A program made the position numbers and the translations under genes. The notes under the pieces are model-generated. The model had not been told where the DNA came from. It ran no database searches and saw nothing but the letters and a program-made list of their open reading frames with translations. From Spirochaetaceae bacterium (GTDB lineage: Bacteria; Spirochaetota; Spirochaetia; DSM-2461), in assembly GCA_965226485.1 (NCBI GenBank), contig OZ245363.1:2170817-2234816 (forward strand): a stretch of DNA of 64,000 nt, given 5' to 3'. This document shows, in pieces, positions 4,268-61,102 of this stretch. Each line of letters begins with the position of its first letter. Position 1 is the stretch's first letter.

Positions 4268-4650
4268 GGGGCTGTGTCAGAATGCGCCTTTGGCCCGCAT
4301 GCGGCGTTGGCGAAAAAACCTGAAATGCTCATGTACAACATGTACACTCCGCTTTCAGAACTTTTCGCCGCCTTGCCTGCAGACCAAATCCATCATTCTG
4401 ACCCAGCCCCTGGCCCGCATGCGGCGTTAGCGAAAAAACCTGAAATGCTCATGTACAATATGTACACTCCGCTTTCAGAACTTTTCGCCGCCTTGCCTGC
4501 AGACCAAATCCATCATTCTGACACAGCCCCTGGCCCGCATGCGGCGTTAGCGAAAAAACCTGAAATACTCATGTACAACATGTACACTCCGCTTTCAGAA
4601 CTTTTCGCCGCCTTGCCTGCAGACCAAATCCATCATTCTGACACAGCCCC
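4268..4650. mobile_element. MITE-like element with 16-bp terminal inverted repeats and three tandem 120-bp internal units
   Basis: GGGGCTGTGTCAGAAT ... ATTCTGACACAGCCCC; unit repeats at a 120-bp period; related copies at 13016, 20630, 28858, 44063, 56330. Confidence 0.85.
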
Positions 4651-5915: not shown

Positions 5916-7143
5916 TAGTGCCCCGAACTCTGTGTTCACCGCTATACCCGAATGTACAACGGGATATAGCGATTAATTTTTACCCCGGGATTGCGCCACT
6001 GACTGAACCAGGTCTTGCGTTCTTCTGTACCCAGCTTGATTTTCCTCAGGAAGGGGCGCTTCATCCAATACTTGCCGATTATTTTGTCCAGGTCTGTGCG
6101 ATTGATTCCTGCCTCTTCTACATGCGTTGTCATGTCGTTCTTTCGGGCATCCTGGACCCGCCGGGCAATCATGCAGTTATGGTAGTGGCGGTAGAGGGTC
6201 ATGCGCATCATCATCGCACTGGGACACCGGGAAAACTGCACCGTCTCTCGCACATGATTGCAGTTATCTTTGCGTACCTGACGGTCAATGTAATTCACAG
6301 GGAATAGAGGATTGTTTTTATTCCTGAACTCATGTGAGGATATACATTCATGGAGAAAGTATTTTTTGAAGTCCTTGATCTTGGCGAAGGCTCGTGTATA
6401 CGATTTGTGTAGGTCTGTCGTCAATGTCTTCCCGGTAATTTTCTTTTCTTTAAGTAGTTGAATAAGTTCGCTAGCTATATTTCTAAACGATTTCTCAATG
6501 GCCTTCGGGTCGGCTTTTTCTATGGATTCTAGTACCATTCTCCGCTTCTTTTGTGCCTGGGTCATTCTTCCTTTGCGCCTAAGATTGGCAAAACCCATGC
6601 TGTAAATGAACTCGGATTCGGAGCCAGCAAAGATGTTGATATGATGGGGAAAGTACTGGGACTCGGAGAAAGATTCCAGCCCATCGGCGGCCATATCTTC
6701 TTGCAGAGGTAAATCAGGGAGCAGTTCGGAATGAATGGCCTGGCAGCATCTTGCCAGCCGTTCGAATCGGTTCTGAACGGTCTCTATTCTGACGTTAATA
6801 GCACGGCCTATATCGCCCAGCCCTGAAGCGGTGACAAGATGCTCGAAGATCTTTGAATAATCGACAACTTTTTTGGCATAGTAATCAATTGAAAAGGTTT
6901 GATCAGAAAAAGTCCTGCGGCAATTCTTACAGCGGTAACGCTGAACTTGGCCGAAGGCCGATGTTGGATGAAAACCATAGCGAATATACCAATTTTCCCC
7001 GGCGGGAGCCTCGAAATTGGAGCAATCGGGATTGGGGCAGTGTGGAAAAGTCATAACATACCTCCTTAGTAAGTTGTTTCCCTACTAAGGTATGACTTGC
7101 GTTTAGAGGCGATTTACTTCAAAAAACAGGCTTTGGGGCACTG
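5916..7143 (-). mobile_element. Insertion sequence (IS1-like, unclassified), ~1.23 kb
   Basis: Imperfect terminal IRs TAGTGCCCCGAA / TTTGGGGCACTG (10/12) enclosing a single ORF. Confidence 0.65.
5942..7054 (-). CDS. Putative transposase: N-terminal Zn ribbon and HTH, then RNase H-like catalytic domain
   Basis: CPNPDC...RYRCKNC Zn ribbon (InsA-like); acidic motifs AADGLESF, LTTDLHKSY, VNYIDRQVRKD; SD AGGAGG. Confidence 0.7.
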   Translation of the reverse strand: MTFPHCPNPDCSNFEAPAGENWYIRYGFHPTSAFGQVQRYRCKNCRRTFSDQTFSIDYYAKKVVDYSKIFEHLVTASGLGDIGRAINVRIETVQNRFERLARCCQAIHSELLPDLPLQEDMAADGLESFSESQYFPHHINIFAGSESEFIYSMGFANLRRKGRMTQAQKKRRMVLESIEKADPKAIEKSFRNIASELIQLLKEKKITGKTLTTDLHKSYTRAFAKIKDFKKYFLHECISSHEFRNKNNPLFPVNYIDRQVRKDNCNHVRETVQFSRCPSAMMMRMTLYRHYHNCMIARRVQDARKNDMTTHVEEAGINRTDLDKIIGKYWMKRPFLRKIKLGTEERKTWFSQWRNPGVKINRYIPLYIRV

Positions 7144-14329: not shown

Positions 14330-17300
14330 AGAGCTGGCATGGGAGGCACTGAGTTCTGAGTTCTGAGTTTCGCACGGAGGCACGGAGGGCACGGAGGTTT
14401 TTCAAGGCTTTGTCAGCTCCTTTCTTCGTGTCCTTTTTGAACTTTGTGAGATTGAAAATGGCATGGGGTATATAAAAAGTTTCGCACGGAGGCACGGAGT
14501 GCACGGAGGGCACGGAGGTTTTTCAACGCTTTGTTTGCTCCTTTCTTCGTGTTCTTTTTGAACTTTGTGAGATTGAAAATGGCATGGGGTATATAAAAAG
14601 TTTCGCACGGAGGCACGGAGTGCACGGAGGGCACGGAGGTTTTTCAACGCTTTGTTTGCTCCTTTCTTCGTGTTCTTTTTGAACTTTGTGAGATTGAAAA
14701 TGGCATGGGGTATATAAAAAATTTCGCACGGAGGCACAGAGTACACAGAGGTTTTTCAATGATTTGTCTGATTCTCTCTCCATGTTCTTTCCGTTTTCTT
14801 TATGAACTCCGTGAGATCTGAAAATGGCATGGGAGGTACAGAGAATTTCGCACGGAGGCACAGAGTACACAGAGGTTTTTTAAAGATTTGTCTGATCTCC
14901 TCTTCGTGTCCTTTGCGATCTCCGAGAGAGGCAGAATTGTGCACAGAGGTTTTTCAACGCTTTTTCTGCTCCCCCTCCGTGTCCTCTGTGATCTCCGTGA
15001 GATCTGAAAACGGCGTGGGAGGTATAAAGAGTTTCGCACAGAGGCACAGAGGGCTCAGAGGTTTTTAAATCTTTGCCTGCCCCCTCTCCTTGGCCTTTGT
15101 GAACTCCGTGAGAGGCATAGTTTCGAACAGAGGTTTTTCAACGCTTTTTCTGCTCCCCCTCCGTGTCCTCTGTGAACTTTGTGAGATCTGAAAACGGCGT
15201 GGGAGGTACAAAGTGTTTCGCACGGAGGCACAGAGTACACAGAGGTTTTTAAAGCTTTGGCTGCCCCCCCTCCGTGTCCTTTGTGATCTCCGTGAGAAGC
15301 ATAGTTTCGAACAGAGGTTTTTCAACGCTTTTTCTGCCCCCCTCTCCTTGGCCTTTGTGGACTCCGTGAGAGGCATAGTTTCGAACAGAGGTTTTTCAAC
15401 GCTTTTTCTGCTCCCCCTCCGTGTCCTCTGTGATCTCCGTGAGAGCTATAACGGCGTGGGAGGTACAAAGAGTTTCGCACAGAGGCACGGAGGGCTCAGA
15501 GGTTTTTAAAGCTTTGGCTACTCCCCTCTCCTTGGCCTTTGTGATCTCCGTGAGAGCTATAACGGCGTGGGAGGTATAAAAAGTTTCGCACAGAGGCACA
15601 GAGGTTTTTAAATCTTTGCCTGCCCCCTCTCCTTGGCCTTTGTGGACTCCGTGAGAGGCAGAGTTGCGCACAGAGGTTTTTCAACGCTTTTTCTGCCCCC
15701 CTCCGTGTCCTCTGTGAACTTTGTGAGATCTGAAAACGGCGTGGGAGGTACAAAGTGTTTCGCACGGAGGCACAGAGTACACAGAGGTTTTTTAAAGATT
15801 TGTCTGATCTCCTCTTCGTGTCCTTTGCGATCTCCGAGAGAGGCAGAATTGTGCACAGAGGTTTTTCAAAGCTTGGTCTGCCCCCCCTCCGTGTCCTCTG
15901 TGAACTTTGTGAGATCTGAAAATGGCATGGGAGGTACAAAGTGTTTCGCACAGAGGCTCAGAGGGCTCAGAGGTTTTTAAATCTTTGCCTGCCCCCTCTC
16001 CTTGGCCTTTGTGGACTCCGTGAGAGGCAGAGTTGCGCACGGAGGTTTTTCAAAGATTTGTCAGCTCCTTTCTTCGTGTCCTTTTTGAACTCCGTGAGAT
16101 CTAAAACGGCGTGGGAGGTACAAAGAGTTTCGCACAGAGGCACGGAGGGCACGGAGGTTTTTCAAAGATTTGTCAGCTCCTTTCTTCGTGTCCTTTTTGA
16201 ACTTTGTGAGATTGAAAATGGCATGGGGTATATAAAAAGTTTCGCACGGAGGCACGGAGGGCACGGAGGGCACGGAGGTTTTTCAACGCTTTGTCTGCTC
16301 CTTTCTTTGTGTTCTTTTTGAACTTTGTGAGATTGAAAATGGCTTGGGATGTATAAAAAGTTTCGCACGGAGGCACGGAGGGCACGGAGGTTTTTCAAAG
16401 ATTTGTCTGCTCCCCCTCCGTGTCCTCTGTGAACTCCGTGAGATCTGAAAACGGCGTGGGAGGTATAAAGAGTTTCGCACAGAGGCACAGAGGGCTCAGA
16501 GGTTTTTAAATCTTTGCCTGCCCCCTCTCCTTTGCCTTTGTGATCTCCGAGAGAGGCAGAATTGTGCACAGAGGTTTTTCAACGCTTTTTCTGCCCCCCT
16601 CCGTGTCCTCTGTGAACTCCGTGAGATCTAAAACGGCGTGGGAGGTACAAAGAGTTTCGCACAGAGGCACAGAGGGCTCAGAGGTTTTTAAATCTTTGCC
16701 TGCCCCCTCTCCTTGGCCTTTGTGAACTCCGTGAGAGGCATAGTTTCGAGCAGGGTTTTTTCAACGCTTTTTCTGCTCCCCCTCCGTGTCCTCTGTGAAC
16801 TTTGTGAGATCTGAAAACGGCGTGGGAGGTACAAAGTGTTTCGCACGGAGGCACAGAGTACACAGAGGTTTTTTAAAGATTTGTCTGATCTCCTCTTCGT
16901 GTCCTTTGCGATCTCCGAGAGAGGCAGAATTGCGCACAGAGGTTTTTCAAAGCTTGGTCTGCTCCCCTCCGTGTCCTCTGTGATCTCCGTGAGATCTGAA
17001 AACGGCGTGGGAGGTATAAAGAGTTTCGCACAGAGGCACAGAGGGCTCAGAGGTTTTTAAATCTTTGCCTGCCCCCTCTCCTTGGCCTTTGTGAACTCCG
17101 TGAGAGGCATAGTTTCGAGCAGGGTTTTTTTAACGCTTTTTCTGCTCCCCCTCCGTGTCCTCTGTGAACTTTGTGAGATCTGAAAACGGCGTGGGAGGTA
17201 CAAAGTGTTTCGCACGGAGGCACAGAGTACACAGAGGTTTTTTAAAGATTTGTCTGATCTCCTCTTCGTGTCCTTTGCGATCTCCGAGAGAGGCAGAATT

Positions 17301-18665
17301 GTGCACAGAGGTTTTTCAAAGCTTGGTCTGCTCCCCTCCGTGTCCTCTGTGATCTCCGTGAGATCTGAAAATGGCATGGGAGGTACAAAGTGTTTCGCAC
17401 AGAGGCACAAAGGGCTCAGAGGTTTTTAAATCTTTGCTTGCCCCCTCTCCTTTGCCTTTGTGATCTCCGAGAGAGGCAGAATTGTGCACAGAGGTTTTTC
17501 AACGCTTTTTCTGCTCCCCCTCCGTGTCCTCTGTGAACTCCGTGAGATCTAAAACGGTATGGGAGGTACAAAGTGTTTCGCACAGAGGCTCAGAGGGCAC
17601 AGAGGTTTTTAAAGCTTTGGCTGCCCCCTCCGTGTCCTTTGTGATCTCCGTGAGAAGCATAGTTTCGAACAGAGGTTTTTCAACGCTTTTTCTGCTCCCC
17701 CTCCGTGTCCTCTGTGAACTCCGTGAGATCTGAAAATGGCATGGGAGGTACAGAGAGTTTCGCACGGAGGCACAGAGTACACAGAGGTTTTTTAAAGATT
17801 TGTCTGATCTCCTCTTCGTGGCCTTTGCGATCTCCGAGAGAGGCAGAATTGTGCACAGAGGTTTTTCAACGCTTTTTCTGCTCCCCCTCCGTGTCCTCTG
17901 TGAACTCCGTGAGATCTAAAACGGCTTGGGATGTATAAAAAGTTTCGCACGGAGGCACAGAGTACACAGAGGTTTTTCAATGATTTGTCTGCTTCTCTCT
18001 CCATGTTCTTTCCGTTTTCTTTGTGAACTCCGTGAGATCTGAAAATGGCATGGGAGGTACAGAGAATTTCGCACGGAGGCACAGAGTACACAGAGGTTTT
18101 TTAAAGATTTGTCTGATCTCCTCTTCGTGTCCTTTGCGATCTCCGAGAGAGGCAGAATTGTGCACAGAGGTTTTTATATCTTTGCCTGCCCCCCCTCCGT
18201 GTCCTTTGTGATCTCCGTGAGATCTGAAAACGGCGTGGGAGGTATAAAGAGTTTCGCACAGAGGCACAGAGGGCTCAGAGGTTTTTAAAGCTTTGGCTGC
18301 CCCCTCCGTGTCCTTTGTGATCTCCGTGAGAAGCATAGTTTCGAACAGAGGTTTTTCAACGCTTTTTCTGCTCCCCCTCCGTGTCCTCTGTGATCTCCGT
18401 GAGATCTGAAAATGGCATGGGAGGTACAAAGTGTTTCGCACAGAGGCACAGAGGGCTCAGAGGTTTTTAAATCTTTGCCTGCCCCCTCTCCTTTGCCTTT
18501 GTGATCTCCGAGAGAGGCAGAATTGTGCACAGAGGTTTTTCAACGCTTTTTCTGCTCCCCCTCCGTGTCCTCTGTGATCTCCGTGAGAGCTATAACGGCG
18601 TGGGAGGTACAAAGAATTTCGCACGGAGGCACGGAGTGCACGGAGGGTTTTCAAAGCTTGGTTGA
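14330..18665. repeat. Array A: mosaic tandem array of ~45 units (~70 or ~110-120 bp) built from shuffled modules
   Basis: About 45 GAGGTTTTT anchors counted by hand; recurring CTCCGTGTCCTCTGTG / CACAGAGGCACAGAG imperfect inverted pairs. Confidence 0.95.
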
Positions 18666-28857: not shown

Positions 28858-28958
28858 GGGGCTGTGCCAGAATGCACCTTTGGCCCGCATGTGGCGTTGC
28901 CTTGCCTGCAAACCAAATCCGTCATTCTGACCCAGCCCCTGGATTCTGACACAGCCCC
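28858..28958 (+). mobile_element. MITE family copy with doubled right end
   Basis: GGGGCTGTGCCAGAAT...ATTCTGACCCAGCCCCTGGATTCTGACACAGCCCC. Confidence 0.8.
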
Positions 28959-29296
28959 GGGCGGGGGATGAGCCCAACGGGCCCCCTCTTCTTCGCTATC
29001 GTTTAAGCTACGCTGAAGGTTTTGCCGCCTTGTTTCAGGAATAAATCATCAGAAATCGCCTCGAACACTCAATGTCCGACAGACTCCTAGAATAAATAGT
29101 CGCTAATTCACAGAGTTCCTCATACCTGATGGTGCTATTATACACTCCGAGAGCCTTCTCCACAACTATTTTTGAAAAGATATGATTAGGGAACACTTCC
29201 CCAATGCCCTACTCTGGTAGTCTGCTAACCGGCTCATTGCCAATCGGCGGGGGGAGTAGCGATATTTCCGCTACAATTCCTTGTGCCTATGTCATT

Positions 29297-29669
29297 GGCT
29301 CTTTGAACTACCTTATGGAATAAGATGGAAATAAAGTACTATTTGAAAATGGATGCTAGAGAGCCATATCAGCAAATACATGGAATTGTTACTAGGCCCT
29401 GATCTAAGCATAGACAATGATTGTGTGCATATATATCTGGAATGGCCGCAAGGGAAGTCGGCATTTGCCCAGAATGCGGTACTGTCTGCAAAATTCATGA
29501 CGGAAGAGAAGAGCGGACGTGGAGACATTTGGATACCTGTCAATTAAAGACGTATATTCACGGTCAAATTTCCCGAGTGAAATGTCCTGAATATAAAACC
29601 AAGACGATGAATATTCCATGGGCAAAAGAGACAAGCCGATTCACAGCACAGTTTCAAGCAGTGGCAATT
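29297..29669 (+). pseudogene. ISL3-family remnant (left end plus frameshifted, truncated transposase N-terminus)
   Basis: GGCTCT end; CPECG...HDGREERTWRHLDTCQ...IPWA..SRFT (zf-ISL3 type) split over frames. Confidence 0.8.
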
Positions 29670-29775
29670 GTCCTTATTCCTTCAATACAGAGGAATAAGA
29701 ACAATAATTATGTACAGTCGTTAAATATCATTAGACAAATAAAGCATTACAAATACAATTAACAAAAGGACGCTG

Positions 29776-30716
29776 ATGAAAACAATAGTAGATGACCAGA
29801 ATCACACACACTACAAGCTTCGACTCAGCGAGGTAGAAAAACCTGTGCCAAATGACAGTGAAGTTTTGTTGGAAGTTTTATCTACATCGCTAAATGCAGC
29901 GGACTACCGTTCAATGAAAATGGGGATAATTTCAAGGAAAAAGATAGTCGGATCTGCGGTATCAGGTAGAATAGAATCAGTTGGTAAAAACATCCAATAT
30001 TTCAAACCAGGTGATGAAGTAATCGGAGACCTTACAGATTTCGGATTTGGAGGATTAGCCGAATTCGCTGTAGCTCCTGAAAAAGCGTTCACTCACAAAC
30101 CTTCAAATGTTTCCTTTGAAGATGCTGCAACATTGCCTGTAGTAGCAATAACGGCACTGAAAGCACTGCGAGATAAAGGCAACATTCAAGATGGAAACGA
30201 TGTGTTAATTGTCGGTAGTACGGGCGGTGTTGGCAGCTATGCCTTGCAACTAGGCAAATGTTTTGGTGCAAATGTGACTGCAGTATGCAGTTCTAAAAAC
30301 ATGGAGCAAACAACTTCTTTGGGAGCAGATAAAGTAATAGACTATACAAAAAATGATTTTACAAAAAGTAGCGTTCGCTACGATCTCATTGTGGCAATCA
30401 ACGGCAATTATCCATTATTAGGTTACAGACGCATTCTACATTCAAAGGGCATATATGTTATGGTAGGCGGTACGCTTACCCAGATTTTTAAATCTATATT
30501 TTTCGGTTGGTTATTATCTTTTAGAGGAAATAAAATAAAAAATCTTTCTGCGAAATCTGATTCAAAAGACCTAGAGTACATTTCAAAACTCTTGAATGAA
30601 AATAAATAATGAAAGTCATTAATAAGCGTTACTCACTTGACAAGTCAGCAGAAGCAATGGATTATTTAAGTAAAGGACACTCGCCCGGCAAAGTGATTAT
30701 AAATGTTCAAAAATAA
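29776..30716 (+). pseudogene. NAD(P)-dependent alcohol dehydrogenase / quinone reductase (MDR family), frameshifted near the C-terminus
   Basis: SLNAAD, GSTGGVGSYALQL, LGADKVIDY; the tail KVINKRYSLDKSAEAMDYLSKGHSPGKVII is in another frame after 30609. Confidence 0.8.
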
Positions 30717-30769
30717 TAACGAATGTCCAACAAGACCTAGACTGCATTAGAACTCAACTTAACCAGAAC

Positions 30770-31026: not shown

Positions 31027-31157
31027 AGCACGAAAGCACAGTATTTTGTATAAGTAATGGCAGGTAAAGAGGCAACTATTAAGATTTATAGCCTGCCAAA
31101 ACTGCATAGTGGTTTGACAGGAAACTAGTACTAGTCATATAATTTTCCGTTGAGGAT
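31026..31157 (+). repeat. attC-like site (degenerate)
   Basis: AAGCACGAAAGCAC..GTATAAGTAATGGCAGG ... CCTGCCA ... CATATAATTTTCC-GTTGAGG. Confidence 0.5.
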
Positions 31158-31176
31158 ATAAAAAAATAAAAAAACT

Positions 31177-31372
31177 GCATAACAAATCGTTGCACCTGAC
31201 ATCTTTCCGCTTTACTCAACAATGCAACTGAACTCAGCGATATGCAGAGAACTGCAATTGATGATTTTCTTGAGTAAAGGAAGCAAAAATGGTAAAAGAA
31301 AATATAAACAGTGGTTCTTATCCCTTCAATTCAGAGGTATAAGAACAATAATTATACACAGTCGTTGTATGC
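31177..31372 (+). repeat. 196-bp ORF-less attC-like unit, copy 1
   Basis: GCATAAC...GTTGTATGC; internal IRs CTTTACTCAA/TTGAGTAAAG and GTTCTTAT/ATAAGAAC; second copy 33263-33458, partial copy 29670-29728. Confidence 0.75.
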
Positions 31373-31412
31373 AATGTAAAATAACTGACAACCGTAACTT
31401 AATTGGAATAAT

Positions 31413-31784
31413 ATGAGCGGAAAAGCGGAATTTAAAAATGCGGACGAATATTTTGATGCCCAACCCGAAAATGTCAAAAAAATTCTTTTGGAATTAAAGG
31501 AATGTATTCTCAAAGCAGAACCAAATGCAACGGAACTGTTGAATTATAACATTCCTGCTTATGCTTTAGTCGAAAATGGAAAAAGGGAACAGCAGATTAT
31601 GATAGCGGGATATAAAAAACACGTTGGACTTTATCCACACCCAACGACTATGGAAAAATTCGACTCGGAATTGAAAGAATATAAACGAGCCAAAGGTTCG
31701 GTTCAGTTCCCATTAGACAAACCATTGCCGAAAGAACTGATTATCCGAATGATTAAGTATCGAATTGAACTATTAAAAGAGTAA
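31413..31784 (+). CDS. DUF1801/YdhG-like protein (cassette)
   Basis: DEYFDAQP, NYNIPAY, HVGLYP, KGSVQFPLDKPLPKELI. Confidence 0.85.
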   Translation: MSGKAEFKNADEYFDAQPENVKKILLELKECILKAEPNATELLNYNIPAYALVENGKREQQIMIAGYKKHVGLYPHPTTMEKFDSELKEYKRAKGSVQFPLDKPLPKELIIRMIKYRIELLKE

Positions 31785-31793
31785 AAAGACACT

Positions 31794-31857
31794 ACATACA
31801 ACAAAACCTATACGCAATACCCTTCGGGATAGTGCGCATAGGCAAACCGTTGGGTAC
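31794..31857 (+). repeat. attC-like site
   Basis: CATACAAC ... CCTATACGCA-loop-TGCGCATAGG ... GTTGGGTAC directly after a stop codon. Confidence 0.75.
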
Positions 31858-31876
31858 AACTATAAGAAACAAACAA

Positions 31877-32167
31877 GTGACAGAATTAGAACTGATAATT
31901 GACTTGCATAAAAATTCCGAGAAACAAAAGCCAGGTAGCGAAAATGATACGCTAAGAGCACCTGATTTATTGAATCTGCCGACTGACCAAAATTTGAAAG
32001 TGTCCGACATGGGTTGTGGTTCAGGTGGGCAGACGATTTCACTTGCCAAAAATTTGAACGGAAAAATCACGGCAGTTGACTTGTTTCCAGAGTTTTTAAA
32101 TGAAATCAATGAAAAATCACAGAAATTAGGATTGCAGATAAAATCGTTACGCTTGAAAAATCAATGA
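31877..32167 (+). pseudogene. Truncated copy of the class I SAM methyltransferase cassette
   Basis: Near-identical to 33478 onward (DMGCGSGG motif), frameshifted and cut at ~32170. Confidence 0.85.
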
Positions 32168-32565: not shown

Positions 32566-32778
32566 ATGAGAACCAACGAGACAATAAAGGAGATTCAAAG
32601 ATTACCCATCCAAAAACGGATTCATGTGATTGAAAAAGCTATTCATTCGATTAGTAAACAAGAAGATGTAAACCAGATGGAAAGGGTAGCCGAAGCTTTA
32701 TATGCTGATTACAAATCCGATAAAGAATTGACTGCATTTACAAGCCTTGATTTTGAAGACTTTTATGAAGCAAGGTGA
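32566..32778 (+). CDS. Putative type II antitoxin
   Basis: 70 aa with acidic C-terminus (LTAFTSLDFEDFYE), overlapping the start of a PemK-like toxin. Confidence 0.65.
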   Translation: MRTNETIKEIQRLPIQKRIHVIEKAIHSISKQEDVNQMERVAEALYADYKSDKELTAFTSLDFEDFYEAR

Positions 32779-33110
32779 AGTTTGGCTAATAAATCTTGAT
32801 TCTACAATTGGAGCTGATATTATAAAACAAGACCTACAATAATTGTAAATGATGACTCGTTGGGTAAATTGCCTTTAAAGATCATTGTTCCGATTACGGA
32901 TTGGAAAGACAAACATGAAATTGCCCCATGGATGGTAAAAATAGAGTTATATTCGAAAAATAGGCTGACTAAAATCTCTTCTGCCGATTATTTTCAAGTT
33001 CGTTCTGTGTTACAAGAAAGATTTGTAAAAAACTGGGCAATATTTAAATGATAATAATGGATGAGATAAAGATCGGTTTATCGAGATTTTTGTCGATTAA
33101 AAATGAATAA
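32765..33110 (+). pseudogene. mazF: PemK/MazF toxin, two frameshifts
   Basis: MKQGEVWLINLDSTIGA / IIVNDDSLGKLPLKIIVPITDW...QVRSV..ERF in different frames. Confidence 0.8.
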
Positions 33111-33118
33111 ACTACGTT

Positions 33119-33251
33119 GCAGAACATGATATAGTTAATTGGCGGGCCGGTAGTATGCAAAAGTTATATACTTTTTATGTAAAGCAAATTGTAACTTGAC
33201 ACGGAAGTACTTTGAAATCGCCACCTAACCATAGGCCCATTCGTTGAGAGT
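33119..33251 (+). repeat. attC-like site
   Basis: GCAGAAC-ATGATATAGTTAATTGGCG ... CGCCACCTAACCATAGG..TTC-GTTGAGA after the toxin stop. Confidence 0.6.
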
Positions 33252-33262
33252 ATAAAAAAACT

Positions 33263-33458
33263 TTATAACAAACCGTTGCACATGACATCTTCCCGCTTTA
33301 CTCGACAATGCAGCTAAACTCAGCGATATACAGAGAACTGCAATTGATGATTTTCTTGAGTAAAAGAAGCAAAAATGGTAAAAGAAAAATATAACAGTGG
33401 TTCTTATCCCTCCAATTCAGATGTATAAGAACAATAACTATACACAGCTGTTGAGTAC
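33263..33458 (+). repeat. 196-bp ORF-less attC-like unit, copy 2
   Basis: Co-linear with 31177-31372 and the same length. Confidence 0.75.
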
Positions 33459-33477
33459 AACTATAAGAAACGAACAA

Positions 33478-34260
33478 GTGACAGAATTAGAACTAATAAT
33501 TGACTTGCATAAAAATTCCGAGAGACAAGGACCAGGCAGCGAAAATGATACGCTAAGAGCACTTGATTTATTGAATCTGCCGACTGACCAAAATTTGAAA
33601 GTGGCCGACATTGGTTGTGGTTCAGGTGGGCAGACGATTTCACTCGCCAAAAATTTGAACGGACAAATCACGGCAGTTGACTTGTTTCCAGAGTTTTTAA
33701 ATGACCTGAATGAAAAATCACAAAAGTTAGGATTTGCAGATAAAATTGTTACGCTTGAAAGATCAATGGACGACTTACCGTTCAAAAAGAATGAATTTGA
33801 CCTAATATGGTCAGAAGGTGCGATTTATAACATTGGGTTTGAAAACGGACTAAAAAAATGGAAGGACTACTTGAAAGTCGGCGGCTATTTGGCTGTGAGT
33901 GAAATCACTTGGATAACCCAATCTCGACCAAAGGAAATTGAAGAGTTTTGGAAAGCGGAATATCCTGAAATTGATACTGCTTCTAACAAAATTGGGCAAT
34001 TAGAAAATAATGGCTATTCGACTGTAGGATATTTCTATTTAAGTCAAGACAGTTGGATTGAGACCTATTATAAGCCAATGCAATCAAGGTTTAAGACTTT
34101 TCTGAAACGCAACGACAATTCAGAACTTGCAAGAAAGGTAGTTGAAGATAATCAAGCGGAAATCGAATTGTATCAAAAATTCAAAAATTATTATAGTTAT
34201 GGATTTTACATAGCGAGAAAAAATGAACAAAAGGTAGCACACAACAATGGCTGTACGTAA
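33478..34260 (+). CDS. Class I SAM-dependent methyltransferase (cassette)
   Basis: GTG start; VADIGCGSGG, FDLIWSEGAIY; stop lies inside the following attC. Confidence 0.9.
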   Translation: MTELELIIDLHKNSERQGPGSENDTLRALDLLNLPTDQNLKVADIGCGSGGQTISLAKNLNGQITAVDLFPEFLNDLNEKSQKLGFADKIVTLERSMDDLPFKKNEFDLIWSEGAIYNIGFENGLKKWKDYLKVGGYLAVSEITWITQSRPKEIEEFWKAEYPEIDTASNKIGQLENNGYSTVGYFYLSQDSWIETYYKPMQSRFKTFLKRNDNSELARKVVEDNQAEIELYQKFKNYYSYGFYIARKNEQKVAHNNGCT

Positions 34261-34371
34261 TGCAAGCGAAAGTGCTGATATGAAAGCAATTACATTAAAT
34301 AAACTAACAACTAAACGGAGGGTGAAATGCCTTGAAAGCCCGCACTACGCATGGCCGAGCCCGTTGCACAA
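34237..34371 (+). repeat. attC-like site
   Basis: GCACACAAC-AATGGCTGTACGTAATGC ... GCACTACGCATGGCCGAGCCC-GTTGCAAC. Confidence 0.7.
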
Positions 34372-35106: not shown

Positions 35107-35331
35107 GGGCACGCCCTGAAACCCATGCCCCGAAGCGTAATGCATCTTACGCCGGGCACGCCCAGAAATGCATAACCCGAAGCGTGATGCATCTCACGCC
35201 GGGCACGCCCAGTAATGCATCCCCCGATGCGAAATGAATCCCACGCCGGGCACGCCCTGAAACGCATCCCCCGAAGCGGAATGCATCTTACGCCGGGCAT
35301 GCCCAGAAACCCATCCCCCGAAGCGAAATGC
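35107..35331. repeat. Array B1: ~5 units of the 47-bp repeat
   Basis: Unit CGGGCACGCCCAGAAACGCATGCCCCGAAGCGGAATGCATCCCCCGC with variants. Confidence 0.9.
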
Positions 35332-35931
35332 TGTAATCTCGCAAAATATCCTAACCAATCTCCCCATGAATATCTCACACTCAGTTAACTAATTTTTCAC
35401 AACAGATAATCTAATTCTCAATCTCTCCGAACATAAAAAAAGGAGCAGGGCCCACGCAAATGCACACCTACTCCAATCTCAATCCCTCCCCAAAGGGAGG
35501 AACAATCTTGATACTTATTTGTCGGATAGATTTAGAAGAACTTAAAGACTCTGGAAAGGAATTTCCCTGGATCAACCCAGATAGCTGTCCTTGCTGTGGC
35601 GGATGTCGGCTCTGGGGCCATGGATTTGTCCTGAGATATTTCCATGGCTACACCGCAGGGTTATGGCTGAAACGGTACCGTTGTCCCGACTGCCATACTG
35701 TTCATACCTTACGTCCTGAAAAATATTCACTAGGTTTTCAGTATCCCTGGAAATGTCCAGGGTAATCACAATTCCCCATGGATAAGCCAGCCAGGGTAAT
35801 TAAGATTCCCCATACGATACAGCTGAGGGTAATCAAGATTCCCCATAAATCGGCCTCTAGGGTAATCACAATTCCCCACTCCCTTCCGTAGATCATTTAC
35901 AATACTCCTGCAACAAAACGCAGGAGTACAT

Positions 35932-37491
35932 ATGGGATACAGAAGGATGAATATTATCGATTTAAAATGCATTTACAGAAGACTACAGTCGGATCAAAGC
36001 ATAAAGACTATCAGCGAATCCGAAGGTTATGACCGAAAAACAATCAGGCATTATCGAGATGCCATGAAATCCTCCGGTCTGCTTGAATCACCTGATCCAT
36101 CGGAAGAGATCTTGGCGGAAAAGCTCTTTGAACTGCTTCCGAACAACGAACGAAGCAGCCCGATACACGATGAATTCCATCAGCACAAAGATGAGATCAT
36201 CCGGCTCACCACAAGGGAACAGGAGCCTATGAAGCTGAAGAGTGCGTTCATCGTCATCAAGCAAAAGTATGGTCTGGGGGGCAGTTACGAGAGCTTCAAA
36301 GTCTTCTCCCGCAAACATCATTTGACGGTTCCCGGGAAAAAGCAGTTCCCGCGACTGGAGTTGCCGCCGGGAGAGGAGACACAGATAGATTATGGTCGAG
36401 TCGGTTTGCATGAAGAGCCGGGAACAGGTAAGAACCGTGTCATCAATGCCTTCGCAGCCAAGCTTTCCTCCTCCAGGCTACCATTCATAGAGTTTACCTA
36501 TTTTCAGAACCAGGAATCCTTTGTCGGGAGCAATGACAATATGGTTCGTTTTTTTGGCGGAGTCACCGAATACCTGACCATTGACAACCTCAAGTCCGGT
36601 GTGATTAGAGCCGACATATACGATCCTCAGATCAACAAGGCATATGCGGAATGGGCGGAGCATCACGGTACTTTTATCAATCCCTGTATCAAGGCACACG
36701 CCAAAGGGAAGGCCAAGGTCGAAAGGATGATTCCTGAAGCCCGAGAGCTTTTTCGACGATTGAAAGAGCTTCATCCCTCCGCAACTCTCAAAGAGCTCAA
36801 TGAAGAGGCAAAGAAGTGGTGTCTGAATGAGTACGGACAGAAAAAGCATGGGACCACTGGCATCCCGCCTTATGAGGCTTTTATCGATGAAGAGAAGCCT
36901 AAGCTAAAACCTATAAATCCTATTCGCTTTGAGATCCCGGTCTGGAAATCTGCAAACGTCCATATGGATCAGTTTGTCAGTTTTGAGAAAAAGCGCTTTT
37001 CCATGCCCTTGTCCTATCGCAGAAAGATCGTGCACTGCCGACGGGCTGGCAGTCTGGTGAAGATCTATGATGAGAATTATCTCTTTATCAGGCAATACGT
37101 TACTACATCCAGGAAAGTGTACTGTACCGACGGTGATTTCCCGCCGGATCAACGTGCGATGATCAAAGGCGATTACCCGCAGTTTCTGATCGGACGGGCA
37201 GCGGCCTACGGATCTGGATCGAAACAACTTGTGGAACAGATCCTGCGGTCTCATGCATTTATAAACGCCCGTATCGCCAAGGGAATGATCACACTCTTCG
37301 AGCAGTACAAGGACCTGCCGTTGCTGCAAGATGTGTGTAGCAAGGCGGCGACCTTCAAGGTGCGCCAACCGAAGCACTTGAAGATCATGCTGGAAGATGA
37401 AAAGAAACAGAAACACCTGGTATTTGAAGTCCCTCGCTCAACGGCGGGTGAAGCCATGGTCAGAGATATTCGAGAATACATGAGCAATTAA
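35932..37491 (+). CDS. istA: IS21 transposase IstA
   Basis: GEETQIDYG, TIDNLKSGV, KGKAKVER DDE motifs. Confidence 0.95.
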   Translation: MGYRRMNIIDLKCIYRRLQSDQSIKTISESEGYDRKTIRHYRDAMKSSGLLESPDPSEEILAEKLFELLPNNERSSPIHDEFHQHKDEIIRLTTREQEPMKLKSAFIVIKQKYGLGGSYESFKVFSRKHHLTVPGKKQFPRLELPPGEETQIDYGRVGLHEEPGTGKNRVINAFAAKLSSSRLPFIEFTYFQNQESFVGSNDNMVRFFGGVTEYLTIDNLKSGVIRADIYDPQINKAYAEWAEHHGTFINPCIKAHAKGKAKVERMIPEARELFRRLKELHPSATLKELNEEAKKWCLNEYGQKKHGTTGIPPYEAFIDEEKPKLKPINPIRFEIPVWKSANVHMDQFVSFEKKRFSMPLSYRRKIVHCRRAGSLVKIYDENYLFIRQYVTTSRKVYCTDGDFPPDQRAMIKGDYPQFLIGRAAAYGSGSKQLVEQILRSHAFINARIAKGMITLFEQYKDLPLLQDVCSKAATFKVRQPKHLKIMLEDEKKQKHLVFEVPRSTAGEAMVRDIREYMSN

Positions 37492-37507
37492 CAAGAAGGA
37501 GAAAACT

Positions 37508-38275
37508 GTGAAAGAAATGCAAACACTTGAGGCCAATCTTCGTCGGTTGAGAATGCCGGGGATACTGGAGAACCTCGATCTACGGCTCCGGGAAGCTGAA
37601 GATGGCGGACTCGGTTATCTGGATTTTTTGATTCTGCTGATTCAAGATGAGGTTGTAAATCGCGATTCCAACATCCTGAGCAAACGTCTGAAAGTCGGAA
37701 GCTTGAGTCCCAGAATGACTTTTGAGAACTTTAACTACCGGTTCAATATGGCAACCATTCCGCAGCAGACCATCCGGGATCTGGCGACTTGCCGCTTTAT
37801 CAGGGACCATAGAAGTCTGGTTCTGTGCGGCCCTCCCGGAATTGGTAAGACCCACATAGCACAGGCCATCGGTCATGAGGTGTGCCGCCGGGGAGGAGAT
37901 GCCCTATTCGTCAAAACCCAGAAACTTTTAGAGTGTCTGACAGACGACTCCTACCCGAGGAGAGTGGCCCGGTTATGGAAGCAGATCAAGACAATGGACT
38001 TGCTGGTTCTCGATGATTTTGGTTTTCGACGTTATGACTCGAAAGAATCCGAGTTGCTTTATGCGCTGGCAGACGAACGTTTGGGAAGTGGTTCGACCAT
38101 CATCACATCCAACCGTCCGCCGCAAGACTGGTACGGTGTCTTTCCCGATCCGGTCATCGGCGGGGCGGTGCTGGATAGACTGGTTTCCGGTGCTATTAAG
38201 ATCATTGTCGAGGAAGCTAAGTCTTACAGGATGCATGGAGTATTCGGTGAGGGGACAGAGGGAAAAGGCTCTTGA
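37508..38275 (+). CDS. istB: IS21 helper ATPase IstB
   Basis: GPPGIGKTH, LLVLDDFG, ITSNR, AVLDRL. Confidence 0.95.
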   Translation: MKEMQTLEANLRRLRMPGILENLDLRLREAEDGGLGYLDFLILLIQDEVVNRDSNILSKRLKVGSLSPRMTFENFNYRFNMATIPQQTIRDLATCRFIRDHRSLVLCGPPGIGKTHIAQAIGHEVCRRGGDALFVKTQKLLECLTDDSYPRRVARLWKQIKTMDLLVLDDFGFRRYDSKESELLYALADERLGSGSTIITSNRPPQDWYGVFPDPVIGGAVLDRLVSGAIKIIVEEAKSYRMHGVFGEGTEGKGS

Positions 38276-39486: not shown

Positions 39487-40452
39487 CCGGGTGCACCCAA
39501 AAACGCATGCCCCGAAGCGAAATGCCTCCCCCGCCGGGCACGCCCAGAAACGCATCCCCCGAAGCGGAATGCATCTTACGCCGGGCATGCCCAGAAACCC
39601 ATCCCCCGAAGCAAAATGCATCCCCCGGCGGGCACGCCCAGAAACGCATGCCCCGAAGCGAAAGGCCTCCCCCGCCGGGCACGCCCAGAAACGCATGCCT
39701 CGAAGTGAAATGCATCCCCCGGCGGGCACGCCCAGAAACGCATGCTTCGAAGCGGAATGCATCTCCCGCCGGGTGCGCCCAGAAATGCATGCTCCGAAGC
39801 GGAATGCATCTTACGCCGGGCATGCCCAGAAACGCATGCCCCGAAGCGAAATGCCTCCCCTGCCGGGCACGCCCTGAAACGCATGCCCCGATGCGAAATG
39901 AATCTCACGCCGGGCACGCCCTGAAACGCATCCCCCGAAGCGAGATGCATCTCACGCCGGGCACGCCCTGAAATGCATGCCCCGAAGCGAAAGGCCTCCC
40001 CCGCCGGGTGCACCCAAAAACGCATGCCCCGAAGCGGAATGCATCTTACGCCGGGCATGCCCTGAAACGCATGCCCCGAAGCGAAATGCCTCCCCCGCCG
40101 AGCACGCCCAGAAACCCATCCCCCGAAGCAAAATGCATCCCCCGCCGGGCACGCCCAGAAACGCATGCTTCGAAGCGAGATGCATCTCCCGGAGGGCACG
40201 CCCAGTAATGCATGATCCGAAGCGTGATGCATCTCACGCCGGGCACGCCCAGTAATGCATGATCCGAAGCGTGATGCATCTCACGCCGGGCACGCCCAGT
40301 AATGCATCCCCCGATGCGAAATGAATCCCACGCCGGGCATGCCCAGAAACCCATCCCCCGAAGTGAAATGCATCCCCCGGCGGGCGCGCCCAGAAATGCA
40401 TGCTTCGAAGCGAGATGTATCCCCCGCCGGGCACGCCCTGATACCCATGCCC
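39487..40452. repeat. Array B2: ~20 units of the 47-bp repeat
   Basis: Same unit as B1 and B3. Confidence 0.95.
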
Positions 40453-58690: not shown

Positions 58691-61102
58691 GTGAAATGCC
58701 TCCCCTGGCGGGCACGCCCAGAAACGCATGCTTCGAAGCGGAATGTATTTCCCGGCGGGCACGCCCAGAAACGCATGCCCCGAAGTGGAATGCATCCCCC
58801 GCCGGGCACGCCCAGAAACGTATGCTTCGAAGCGGAATGCCTCCCCCGGCGGGCACGCCCAGAAACGCATGCTTCGAAGCGGAATGCCTCTTACGCCGGG
58901 CACGCCCAGAAACGCATGCTTCGAAGCGGAATGCCTCTCACGCCGGGTGCGCCCAAAAACGCATGCCCCGAAGCGTGATGCCTTCCCCGGCGGGCACGCC
59001 CAGAAACGCATGCTTCGAAGCGGAATGTATTTCCCGCCGGGCACGCCCTGAAACGCATGCTCCGAAGCGGAATGTATCTCCCGGCGGGCACGCCCAGAAA
59101 CGTATGCTTCGAAGCGGAATGCATCTTACGCCGGGTGCACCCAAAAACGCATGCCCCGAAGCGTGATGCCTTCCCCGGCGGGCACGCCCAGAAACGCATG
59201 CTTCGAAGCGGAATGTATTTCCCGCCGGGCACGCCCTGAAACGCATGCTCCGAAGCGGAATGTATCTCCCGGCGGGCACGCCCAGAAACGTATGCTTCGA
59301 AGCGGAATGCATCTTACGCCGGGTGCACCCAAAAACGCATGCCCCGAAGCGTGATGCCTTCCCCGGCGGGCACGCCCAGAAACGCATCCCCCGAAGCGGA
59401 ATGCATCCCCCGGCGGGCACGCCCAAAAACGCATGCCCCGAAGCGAAATGCATCCCCCGGCGGGCACGCCCAGAAACGCATCCCCCGAAGCGTGATGCCT
59501 CCCCCGCCGGGCACGCCCAAAAACGCATGCCCCGAAGCGGAATGCATCCCCCGGCGGGCACGCCCAAAAACGCATGCCCCGAAGCGTGATGCATCCCCCG
59601 GCGGGCACGCCCAGAAACGCATGCCCCGAAGCGAAATGCCTCCCCCGCCGGGCACGCCCAGAAACGCATGCTTCGAAGCGGAATGCCTCCCCCGCCGGGC
59701 ACGCCCAAAAACGCATGCCCCGAAGCGTGATGCATCCCCCGGCGGGCACGCCCAGAAACGCATGCTCCGAAGCGGAATGCTTCCCCCGGCGGGCGCGCCC
59801 AGAAACGCATGCCCCGAAGCGTGATGCCTCCCACACCGGGCACGCCCAGAAACGCATCCCCCGAAGCGTGATGCCTTCCCCGGCGGGCACGCCCATAAAC
59901 GCATCCCCCGAAGCGGAATGCCTCTCCCGCCGGGCACGCCCAGAAACGTATGCTTCGAAGCGGAATGCCTCCCCCGCCGGGCACGCCCAGAAACGCATGC
60001 TTCGAAGCGGAATGCCTCCCCCGCCGGGCACGCCCAGAAACGCATCCACCGAAGCGTAATGCATCTTACGCCGGGCACGCCCAGAAATGCATGCTTCGAA
60101 GCGGAATGTATCCCCCGGCGGGCGCGCCCAGAAACGCATGCCCCGAAGCGAAATGCATCCCCTGGCGGGCACGCCCAGAAACGCATGCCCCGAAGTGAAA
60201 TGCATCCCCCGGCGGGCACGCCCAGAAACGCATGCCCCGAAGCGAAATGCATCCCCCGGCGGGCACGCCCAGAAACGCATCCCCCGAAGCGTGATGCCTC
60301 CCACACCGGGCACGCCCAGAAACGCATCCCCCGAAGCGTGATGCCTTCCCCGGCGGGCACGCCCAGAAACGCATGCTTCGAAGCGGAATGTATTTCCCGC
60401 CGGGCACGCCCTGAAACGCATGCTCCGAAGCGGAATGCCTCTCCCGCCGGGTGCACCCAAAAACGCATGCCCCGAAGCGGAATGCCTCCCCCGCCGGGCA
60501 CGCCCAGAAACGCATGCTTCGAAGCGGAATGCATCCCCCGGCGGGCACGCCCAGAAACGCATCCCCCGAAGCGGAATGCATCCCCCGGCGGGCACGCCCA
60601 GAAACGCATCCCCCGAAGCGAAATGCATCCCCCGGCGGGCACGCCCAGAAACGCATGCCTCGAAGCGTGATGCATCTCCCGGCGGGCACGCCCAGAAACG
60701 CATGCTTCGAAGCGGAATGTCTCTTACGCCGGGCACGCCCAGAAACGCATGCTTCGAAGCGGAATGCCTCTTACGCCGGGCACGCCCAGAAACGCATGCC
60801 CCGAAGCGTGATGCATCCCCCGCCGGGCACGCCCAGAAACGTATGCTTCGAAGCGGAATGTATCTCCCGCCGGGCACGCCCAGAAACGCATGCCCCGAAG
60901 CGAAATGCTTCCCCCGCCGGGCACGCCCAGAAACGCATGTCCCGAAGCGGAATGCCTTCCCCGGCGGGCACGCCCAGAAACGCATGCCCCGAAGCGTGAT
61001 GCCTCTCACGCCGGGCACGCCCAGAAACGCATGCTCCGAAGCGTGATGCATCCCCCGGCGGGCACGCCCAGAAACGCATGCTCCGAAGCGTGATGCATCC
61101 CC
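58691..61102. repeat. Array B3: ~51 units of the 47-bp repeat
   Basis: Continuous 47-bp periodicity over ~2.4 kb. Confidence 0.95.

Follow-up and report, generated by a model that had tools for sequence, protein, structure and literature searches.

The window analysed here, a stretch of 64,000 nucleotides, contains a short repeated unit that has no open reading frame of its own, lies among small genes, and is followed by a different gene at each of its copies. The locus therefore raises the question of what such a gene-less unit is, where its non-coding DNA came from, and whether it moves or acts by itself. A preliminary description, made from the letters of the window, regarded the unit as an empty, chimeric cassette and suggested that it might be a mobile promoter or small RNA cassette, an attC-targeting MITE, or an adaptor between two attC classes. 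In our main reading, to which we give a probability of roughly 70%, the unit consists of two adjacent gene-less integron cassettes that have been inherited as one block in a decaying cluster. The evidence is presented below for the edges of the unit, the array that contains it, its two halves, and their relatives in other genomes and metagenomes.

Results

Copies and edges of the repeated unit

A repeat search of the window returned a direct repeat of 226 nt (31166-31391 and 33252-33477, 87% identity) and a 58-nt family with three members at 29665, 31309, and 33395, in agreement with the two full copies and one partial copy first described. Scanning with both arm patterns found no further occurrence in the window beyond the repeat copies, and none was expected from shuffled sequences. 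According to the alignment and the raw sequence, similarity between the copies starts directly after the G of GTTGAG (G31149 and G33243) and stops at the G of the next GTT (G31364 and G33450). The units delimited in this way, A and B (Table 1), are approximately 88-92% identical and have the G/TT crossover of integron cassettes at both ends. GTTGAG precedes each copy, as had been noted, but the A-rich stretch that had been treated as an outside spacer is by alignment part of the unit, which is therefore slightly wider on the left than in the coordinates first given. The partial copy ends at G29720/TT and is followed by a medium-chain dehydrogenase/reductase (MDR) pseudogene cassette.

The genes behind the three copies differ, as first described: an MDR pseudogene (29776-30717), a DUF1801 gene, and a methyltransferase gene. 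When the ORFs of both full copies were compared, none was common to units A and B; a 64-aa ORF at 31222-31416 is present in copy A only and crosses two junctions. The earlier view of a gene-less cassette bounded by cassette junctions is thus supported by the lack of a common ORF and by the G/TT edges. Folding of both strands gave two independent hairpins, again as proposed, with stability z-scores of -2.3 to -4. A circular metagenome contig of 3.5 Mb (L001) contains this array as well, with 99.6% identity, so the repeat did not arise by misassembly. A neighbouring gene belongs to the Pfam family TP_1001_2nd, a hint, and no more, at a spirochaete.

A perfect sigma-70 consensus (TTGACA-18-TATAAT) is located at 31114-31143 on the plus strand, 6 nt before the G/TT at which unit A starts. 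Transcripts from this promoter would start at the first bases of the unit and read into the DUF1801 gene; at copy B, only TTGACA is kept.

A decaying cassette array

The copies are embedded in a low-GC island (29.66-35.0 kb; 35-40% against about 48%) of co-directional small genes. The MDR gene is frameshifted near 30609, and the mazF-like toxin gene of a toxin-antitoxin cassette (32766-33051) has stop codons. To the left is an ISL3 remnant that matches NCBIfam transpos_ISL3 (4.6e-15, profile positions 9-80 of 370) and Pfam Zn_ribbon_ISL3; its outer end is presumably an IRL, judging from what is generally known of ISL3 ends. The transposase frame of this remnant breaks off at codon ~80, precisely at the point where the partial copy, and with it the first hairpin site, begins. 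This ISL3 stump marks the truncated head of the cassette array. No tyrosine recombinase or integrase gene was detected in the 64-kb window, and an integrase may have been lost recently with the array head beside the stump. Because of the frameshifted MDR gene, the stop codons in the mazF-like gene, and the ISL3 stump, we regard the array as a decaying cassette cluster without a local integrase.

Heuristic attC searches found one canonical attC only in the window array and a dozen in other loci. The one in the window belongs to the DUF1801 cassette and, with spacers of 5 and 6 nt, was used as the canonical reference within the array. The two methyltransferase copies are 94% identical over 31849-32133 and 33450-33734, and their homology starts exactly after the G of the preceding sites, which are GTTGGGT (the DUF1801 attC) and GTTGAGT (the end of unit B). 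Since the homology begins after the G of both sites, the right end of the unit is a genuine crossover point.

Several other repeats were observed in the window. The segment 32168-32560 abuts the end of the truncated methyltransferase copy at 32167 and is 3-5 times deeper than its flanks in Logan contigs, which suggests that another repeated element is inserted there. To the right of the cassette array are GC-rich 47-nt tandem repeats and an IS21 copy. The tandem arrays (35107-35331, 39496-40452, and 58695-61102) have up to 51 copies, and the first two are a single array split by a 4.2-kb insertion, which contains a DUF6431 ORF and IS21 istA/istB (35460-38275) and is absent from the 99.6%-identical contig. 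Approximately 4.3 kb at 14372-18659 consist of 121/184-nt tandem repeats with no long ORF and a strong AT skew (-0.2). The unit of a 120-nt repeat in three copies (4291-4650 and 28880-28960) resembles the sequence where the cassette array borders the chromosome; this repeat is possibly of a dispersed, intergenic type.

Table 1. Coordinates of the repeated unit, its parts, and neighbouring features in the window
Feature	Position	Strand	Details
ISL3 remnant	29300-29664	+	IRL-like end GGCTCTTTGAAC at ~29300; N-terminal 80 codons of transposase at 29421-29664
Partial copy	29657-29720	+	3' fragment: hairpin site alone, without ATATAAAC box; CM R1 64.7 bits, E 6e-13
Unit A	31150-31364	+	215 nt; full copy, edges at G/TT
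Unit A left half, 'empty' cassette	31150-31239	+	CM R2 85.2 bits
Unit A attC R'' GCATAAC	31177-31183	+	
Unit A attC L'' GTTGCACCTG	31189-31198	+	followed by loop
Unit A attC L' CAACTGAAC	31225-31233	+	followed by spacer TCAGC; crossover G31239
Unit A right half, mini recombinase cassette	31240-31364	+	CM R1 85.9 bits
Last recombinase codons, IDDFLE and stop	31257-31277	+	six codons and stop
Shine-Dalgarno-like AAGGAAG	31277-31283	+	
ATG	31289-31291	+	
ATATAAAC box	31303-31310	+	
Right-half hairpin	31314-31346	+	followed by right arm AATAATTATACACAGTC; crossover G31364/TT
attC of DUF1801 cassette	31796-31855	+	60 nt; R'' ATACAAC, R' GTTGGGT, crossover G31849
Truncated methyltransferase cassette copy	31850-32167	+	homology with full copy 33451-34363
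Unit B	33244-33450	+	207 nt; full copy, edges at G/TT
Unit B empty cassette	33244-33325	+	attC from R'' TTATAAC at 33263; R' box GATATAC; CM R2 81.4 bits
Unit B mini recombinase cassette	33326-33450	+	hairpin 33400-33432; crossover G33450/TT; CM R1 74.9 bits
Array genes			MDR (frameshifted), DUF1801, methyltransferase (one truncated and one full), antitoxin and mazF-like toxin, P-loop protein

The left half contains a canonical attC

The left half of unit A is composed of 27 A-rich bases (31150-31176) and a complete canonical attC, whose R' box reads GATATGC in place of GTTATGC. The model CM R2 is specific to this attC family, and the dozen attCs from other loci were too few and too diverse for MAFFT alignment into a general attC model. 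Whether the unit is an ordinary attC was therefore judged by homology and pair counts rather than by a standard covariance model. The canonical structure (R box, 5-nt spacer, L box with one extra base, loop, and 6-nt spacer) was 82.6% paired across five sequences, compared with 17-36% in slid controls. The sole break in the R boxes of these five is the T>A change (GTT to GAT) in both window copies. The bases after the G (ATATGC or ATATAC) are otherwise complementary to their own R'' and resemble the TTATAC start of the recombinase cassette described below.

Positions 31152-31237 match free-standing gene-less cassettes in two other, unrelated metagenome arrays (L034 7964-8048, 81% over 86 nt, E 1.6e-17; L018 1573-1644, E 1e-14). 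Both are properly terminated (GTTAGTT and GTTAGCA) and followed by gene cassettes. The attC of a gene cassette in L040 also matches the left half. From these sequence matches, the left half is most likely what remains of a gene cassette after gene loss.

A derivation of the left arm from the recombinase coding region (VTPH...RHSFATHLLEQG) was considered as well. Its alignment with L012 scored 29 (shuffle mean 18.5, maximum 30), an nhmmer profile of the 3' third of the recombinase gave no match in the window, and the idea was dropped because free-standing attC homologues were found.

The right half resembles a gutted recombinase cassette

The right half of unit A has a degenerate 5' end (ATATGCAGAG versus TTATACATAA in relatives), which is followed by the tail of a recombinase reading frame, a possible translation start, and a hairpin (Table 1). 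It matches the 3' end of a recombinase gene in the locus L007 (blastn, 88% over 84 nt, E 1.9e-17). Logan contigs from runs holding the window organism have GTTATACATAA joined directly to 31250, and 31250-31364 occurs at approximately 10 times the flanking depth. The best-conserved stretch between the copies runs from the recombinase tail to the ATG (1 mismatch in ~56 nt); it is also the deepest bin in metagenome contigs, which hints at selection on it.

Gene-less minis with different deletion junctions are present in L011, L016, and L018. Where the recombinase gene is retained, it is usually damaged, by internal deletions in L003, L015, L024, L031, L036, and L039 and by a frameshift in L012. 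Internal deletions in recombinase cassettes are thus recurrent and independent, and 31240-31364 in the window is, by its sequence, one more internally deleted recombinase cassette. The apparent chimera is then two neighbouring cassettes, an empty attC cassette followed by a gutted recombinase cassette. The chimeric description holds in that the left part is of the canonical attC type and the right part of a site type that recurs in the array; the left part is nevertheless not just an arm but a whole attC with homologues of its own.

A 277-aa recombinase as the probable parent

The intact parent recombinase has 277 aa (L007 and L017). It scores 227 bits on NCBIfam XerA_Arch (cutoff 220), and the closest solved structure is XerA. 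On the IntI model TIGR02249 it reached 201.7 and 214.6 bits, below the cutoff of 265, and because this match falls into two stretches, the enzyme is considered to lack the extra domain of IntI; the neighbour of the hairpin site in L008 scored 470 bits on the same model. The left edge of gene plus site is a G/TTATACAT junction behind attC sites of various kinds, so the recombinase gene and site are themselves a cassette. At 80% likeness or more, the gene body was absent from runs holding the window organism, in which the module is approximately 8-10 times deeper.

The recombinase is 56% identical to integrases heading rAID-1-type Bacteroidales arrays and to TnpF on Acinetobacter plasmids. Homologues in Chryseobacterium and Parabacteroides have an ATAAAC-type box just 3' of the gene. 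Two Bacteroidota plasmid homologues (L041 3831-4120 and L042 3828-3910; 53-56% identity) have such a box together with structured repeats 3' of the gene, and the one in L042 is followed by Tdi1 and SMI1/KNR4 immunity genes, as in a rAID-1-like array. A limited literature search found no description of the cassette-borne 277-aa recombinase or of its cross-phylum site.

True intI genes were also observed in similar settings. In L008, an intI gene (676-1755) has G/TT sites on both sides; behind it come a Shine-Dalgarno sequence and a short ORF, which starts with ATG and crosses a palindromic site. L017 contains two internally deleted intI copies (6510-6836 and 1194-1460), each with the first ~12 and last ~20 codons and the site. 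Judging from these arrangements, the intI genes in L008 and L017 seem to behave like cassettes and to decay in the same way as the 277-aa recombinase. L011 was examined as a possible complete integron and rejected; the nearby recombinase is XerC-like, not IntI.

The hairpin site recurs in at least eight phyla

Scanning a genome collection with the right arm gave 13 loci, three of them complete chromosomes, labelled Leptospiraceae, Verrucomicrobiota, Cloacimonadota, Spirochaetota, Salinivirgaceae, Gammaproteobacteria, Desulfothermus, and Melioribacteraceae; a metagenome scan added 26 loci. The ~70-nt hairpin site is nearly identical in these 39 loci from at least eight phyla, a tally in which MAG lineages are the labels of the records and the right arm is ascertained by the search pattern itself. 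In at least 20 loci, the site is directly 3' of a tyrosine recombinase gene ending in TTEIYTHVSKKAIDKIKNPMDDFF and a stop codon. Unrelated cassettes use it as their 3' site in L004, L010, L013, and L040. Since conservation begins at ATATAAAC in these cassettes carrying other genes, ATATAAAC is the likely R''. Neither half of the unit matched any viral contig, and the plasmid collection gave no DNA match.

The hairpin stem was 88% paired in 34 copies, compared with 36-54% when slid. Covariation in the stem is slight, since the copies hardly differ and the search pattern itself fixed the right arm. The distances from the stem to the AAC and GTT boxes are 4 nt versus 17 nt, and no R''/R' pairing was found in minimum-free-energy folds; as an attC, the site at the 3' end of the unit is non-canonical. 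After the G, 31 of the 34 copies go on with TT, followed by a purine in 30, which corresponds to the usual TTRRRY junctions of IntI products. The true IntI of L008 (470 bits) directly adjoins a hairpin site. On the basis of the junctions, the site is probably recognised by an IntI.

Discussion

Two gene-less cassettes in one block

We propose the following history for the unit. The left cassette would have lost its gene, leaving a short A-rich 5' stretch and a complete canonical attC. In the right cassette, an internal deletion would have removed the recombinase gene, and the 5' end, the last six codons, the RBS with its ATG, and the 3' site would have stayed. A T>A change in the crossover triplet between the halves then presumably turned GTT into GAT. 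The block could have been moved or copied passively by an integron integrase acting at the upstream site and the hairpin site; the GAT change may help to hold the halves together, and the block itself would be without function. We consider it most likely that the unit is cassette debris of a passive kind.

The joint form spans the junction in the two window copies, which are ~10% apart, and in further contigs (31166-31274 and 31179-31285), and the internal crossover triplet is GAT in every joint copy. Each half also occurs alone in the same samples, and one contig leaves the unit at 31243. A junction-spanning pattern (CTCAGCGATATRCAGAGAACTG) had 0 matches in the metagenome scan, and the joint form has so far been seen in the window lineage and Logan contigs only. 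The recurrence of the joint form together with the separate halves is consistent with a fusion in which the internal site was lost. Experiments with IntI1, however, show that a change of the second base of GTT is tolerated (PMC2811028, results on T2). The GAT triplet need not, therefore, inactivate the internal site, and co-inheritance of the halves could reflect duplication of the block.

The preliminary description had concluded from the different downstream genes that the unit moved or recombined independently. The copies of the unit and of the methyltransferase are similarly diverged (~90% and 94% identity), so they may stem from one multi-cassette duplication. Such a duplication, with a later insertion of DUF1801 at the G/TT of the unit, explains the layout as well as independent movement does. 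Site-specific recombination is favoured either way, since the duplication has its left boundary at a cassette junction. The suggested role as an adaptor between two attC classes is likewise replaced by two neighbouring cassettes, the right one a deletion derivative of a recombinase cassette.

Alternative readings

Among the other explanations, a role in expression is possible, but we consider it rather unlikely. The right half would provide an RBS and a short leader ORF that runs through the hairpin and across G/TT, the next cassette would be translated by coupling, and the unit might contain a weak promoter. A GGAG-like motif 6-13 nt before the ATG is kept in at least 20 copies although the stop-to-ATG sequence varies, and in 22 of 36 distinct copies, among them one with an in-frame 3-nt deletion (L011), the frame opened by the ATG continues across the junction without a stop. 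Both window copies, however, have deletions of 1 nt, after which the ATG no longer shares a frame with the remaining leader, and stops interrupt the leader in several other copies (L020, L026, and L034). The leader stop is often located no more than ~30 nt from the following start codon; the distal frame of unit A terminates in an ATGA that overlaps the start of DUF1801. The sequence behind the intI gene of L008 has the same design, with its short ORF (MIK...) crossing a palindromic site that ends in G/TT, and ORF-11 at attI1 and short ORFs in attC sites are precedents (PMC8876359, sections 3.1-3.2). As for transcription, a weak promoter-like TGACA-16-nACAAT occurs at the same place in both copies, but it matches the consensus at 9/12 positions only, and such matches are common (34 found vs 20.6 expected). 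The sole match in a metatranscriptome search was a DUF1801 homologue, with none over the unit. With only these weak 9/12 matches inside the unit, the earlier idea of a mobile promoter cassette finds little support.

Somewhat less probable still, and in our estimate doubtful, is a non-autonomous mobile element. According to this explanation, the hairpin site is cognate to the 277-aa recombinase, a relative of the rAID-1 integrases, and both form a self-contained cassette-borne module that has become distributed over integron arrays in at least eight phyla; the minis would descend from it as non-autonomous derivatives and be moved in trans to attC crossover points, much as a parent IS mobilises its MITEs. 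The position of the site directly 3' of the recombinase gene in most loci fits this idea, as do the recurrent internal deletions that keep both ends, a pattern of non-autonomous derivatives. The geometry of the site is unlike attC, the recombinase is without the IntI extra domain, its 56% identical relatives head co-directional low-GC immunity-gene arrays (bioRxiv 10.1101/471110), and an ATAAAC-type box also follows the gene in the Chryseobacterium and Parabacteroides homologues. Against it, the site is abundant in runs holding the window organism where the recombinase gene body (at least 80% likeness) is absent, unrelated cassettes use the same site as their 3' end, and the TTRRRY junctions after G are typical of IntI products. 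Moreover, a bona fide IntI adjoins the site in L008, and neither terminal inverted repeats nor target duplications are seen. If this explanation were true, a second, nested recombination system related to the Bacteroidales rAID-1 arrays would parasitise integrons, and both kinds of integrase (IntI in L008 and L017, and the 277-aa recombinase) would behave as cassettes themselves.

A small regulatory RNA cassette is improbable. The hairpins are stable, and gene-less sRNA cassettes are known in Xanthomonas (cited in PMC8876359, section 2.4.3). Rfam, however, gave no match to the unit at the gathering score or at E<=1, no terminator-like site was found in the unit, the metatranscriptome match covers the DUF1801 homologue and not the unit, and the hairpins are accounted for as recombination sites. 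The attC-targeting MITE fares no better, as the ends (TTGAGG... and ...CACAGTCG) are not inverted repeats and the flanks are the G and TT of recombination sites, without duplication.

That the unit is a single long ordinary attC with two hairpins in its centre, the outcome that the preliminary description had set as its own refutation, is extremely unlikely: a RYYYAAC-like box does stand at its left end and GTT at its right end, but the outer arms are unpaired on either strand, the two hairpins are independent, the left 69 nt alone are a complete attC with free-standing homologues, and the right 125 nt share homology with a different cassette, coding remnants lying between the two parts.

Relation to known systems

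ORF-less integron cassettes have been recovered from oral Treponema and environmental metagenomes (PMC8876359, section 2.4.3). The present unit is like them in having no ORF, cassette junctions at its bounds, a 3' recombination site, and a place in the array of a probable spirochaete. Unlike them, its non-coding DNA has a traceable origin, namely a near-bare attC and an internally deleted recombinase cassette, and promoter activity is not strongly predicted in the unit. Fused cassettes such as blaOXA-10/aadA1 and blaGES-1/aacA4 likewise move as a single cassette, with the 3' site of the second partner in use (PMC8876359, section 2.4.4). In the fusions described, the first attC has been lost in part or completely and two genes are retained (PMC8876359, section 2.4.4), whereas the unit has a full first attC with a single altered base (GTT>GAT) and no gene in either partner. 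The window array resembles a CALIN, an attC cluster without an integron integrase (PMC4889954), in its co-directional cassettes and attCs and in the absence of an integrase from 64 kb. It differs in that its head was removed beside the ISL3 stump, and the absence of the integrase refers to 64 kb of a 3.5-Mb genome.

The leader shares with ORF-11 and ORF-18 at attI1 and with the short ORFs of attC sites (PMC8876359, sections 3.1-3.2) a Shine-Dalgarno sequence, an ATG, and a short ORF through the site into the next cassette; unlike these, it belongs to a cassette-borne site conserved across phyla and is frame-broken in the window copies. The rAID-1 arrays (bioRxiv 10.1101/471110) are comparable in that their heading integrases are 56% identical to the parent recombinase and that the window array is also low in GC (35-40% vs 48%). 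Their proteins have 347-368 aa, and the 277-aa recombinase lacks their N-terminal extension. In contrast to rAID-1, it is located inside arrays with G/TT on both sides, these arrays hold canonical attCs and, in L008, a true IntI, and the window itself has no recombinase. As in MITEs, recurrent internal deletions drop the enzyme gene and keep both ends, and copies are numerous relative to intact parents; unlike MITEs, there are no terminal inverted repeats or target-site duplications, and the ends are site-specific recombination junctions. The unit therefore falls within described kinds, that is, ORF-less or fused cassettes (PMC8876359) and integrase-less attC clusters (PMC4889954). It is instructive but fairly ordinary integron debris, not a new kind of element.

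Implications

The unit makes the history of this part of the genome readable as one in which two cassettes lost their genes, a single base changed where they meet, and copies were made inside an array in decay. It also shows that gene-less cassettes can be followed back to the cassettes from which they came. The hairpin site is nearly identical from Spirochaetota to Gammaproteobacteria and has a built-in translation start; standard attC models may miss its geometry. Should the site prove unusually efficient, or should a recombinase of its own serve it, this would matter for two questions, namely how cassettes pass between phyla and how integrase-less clusters remain dynamic.
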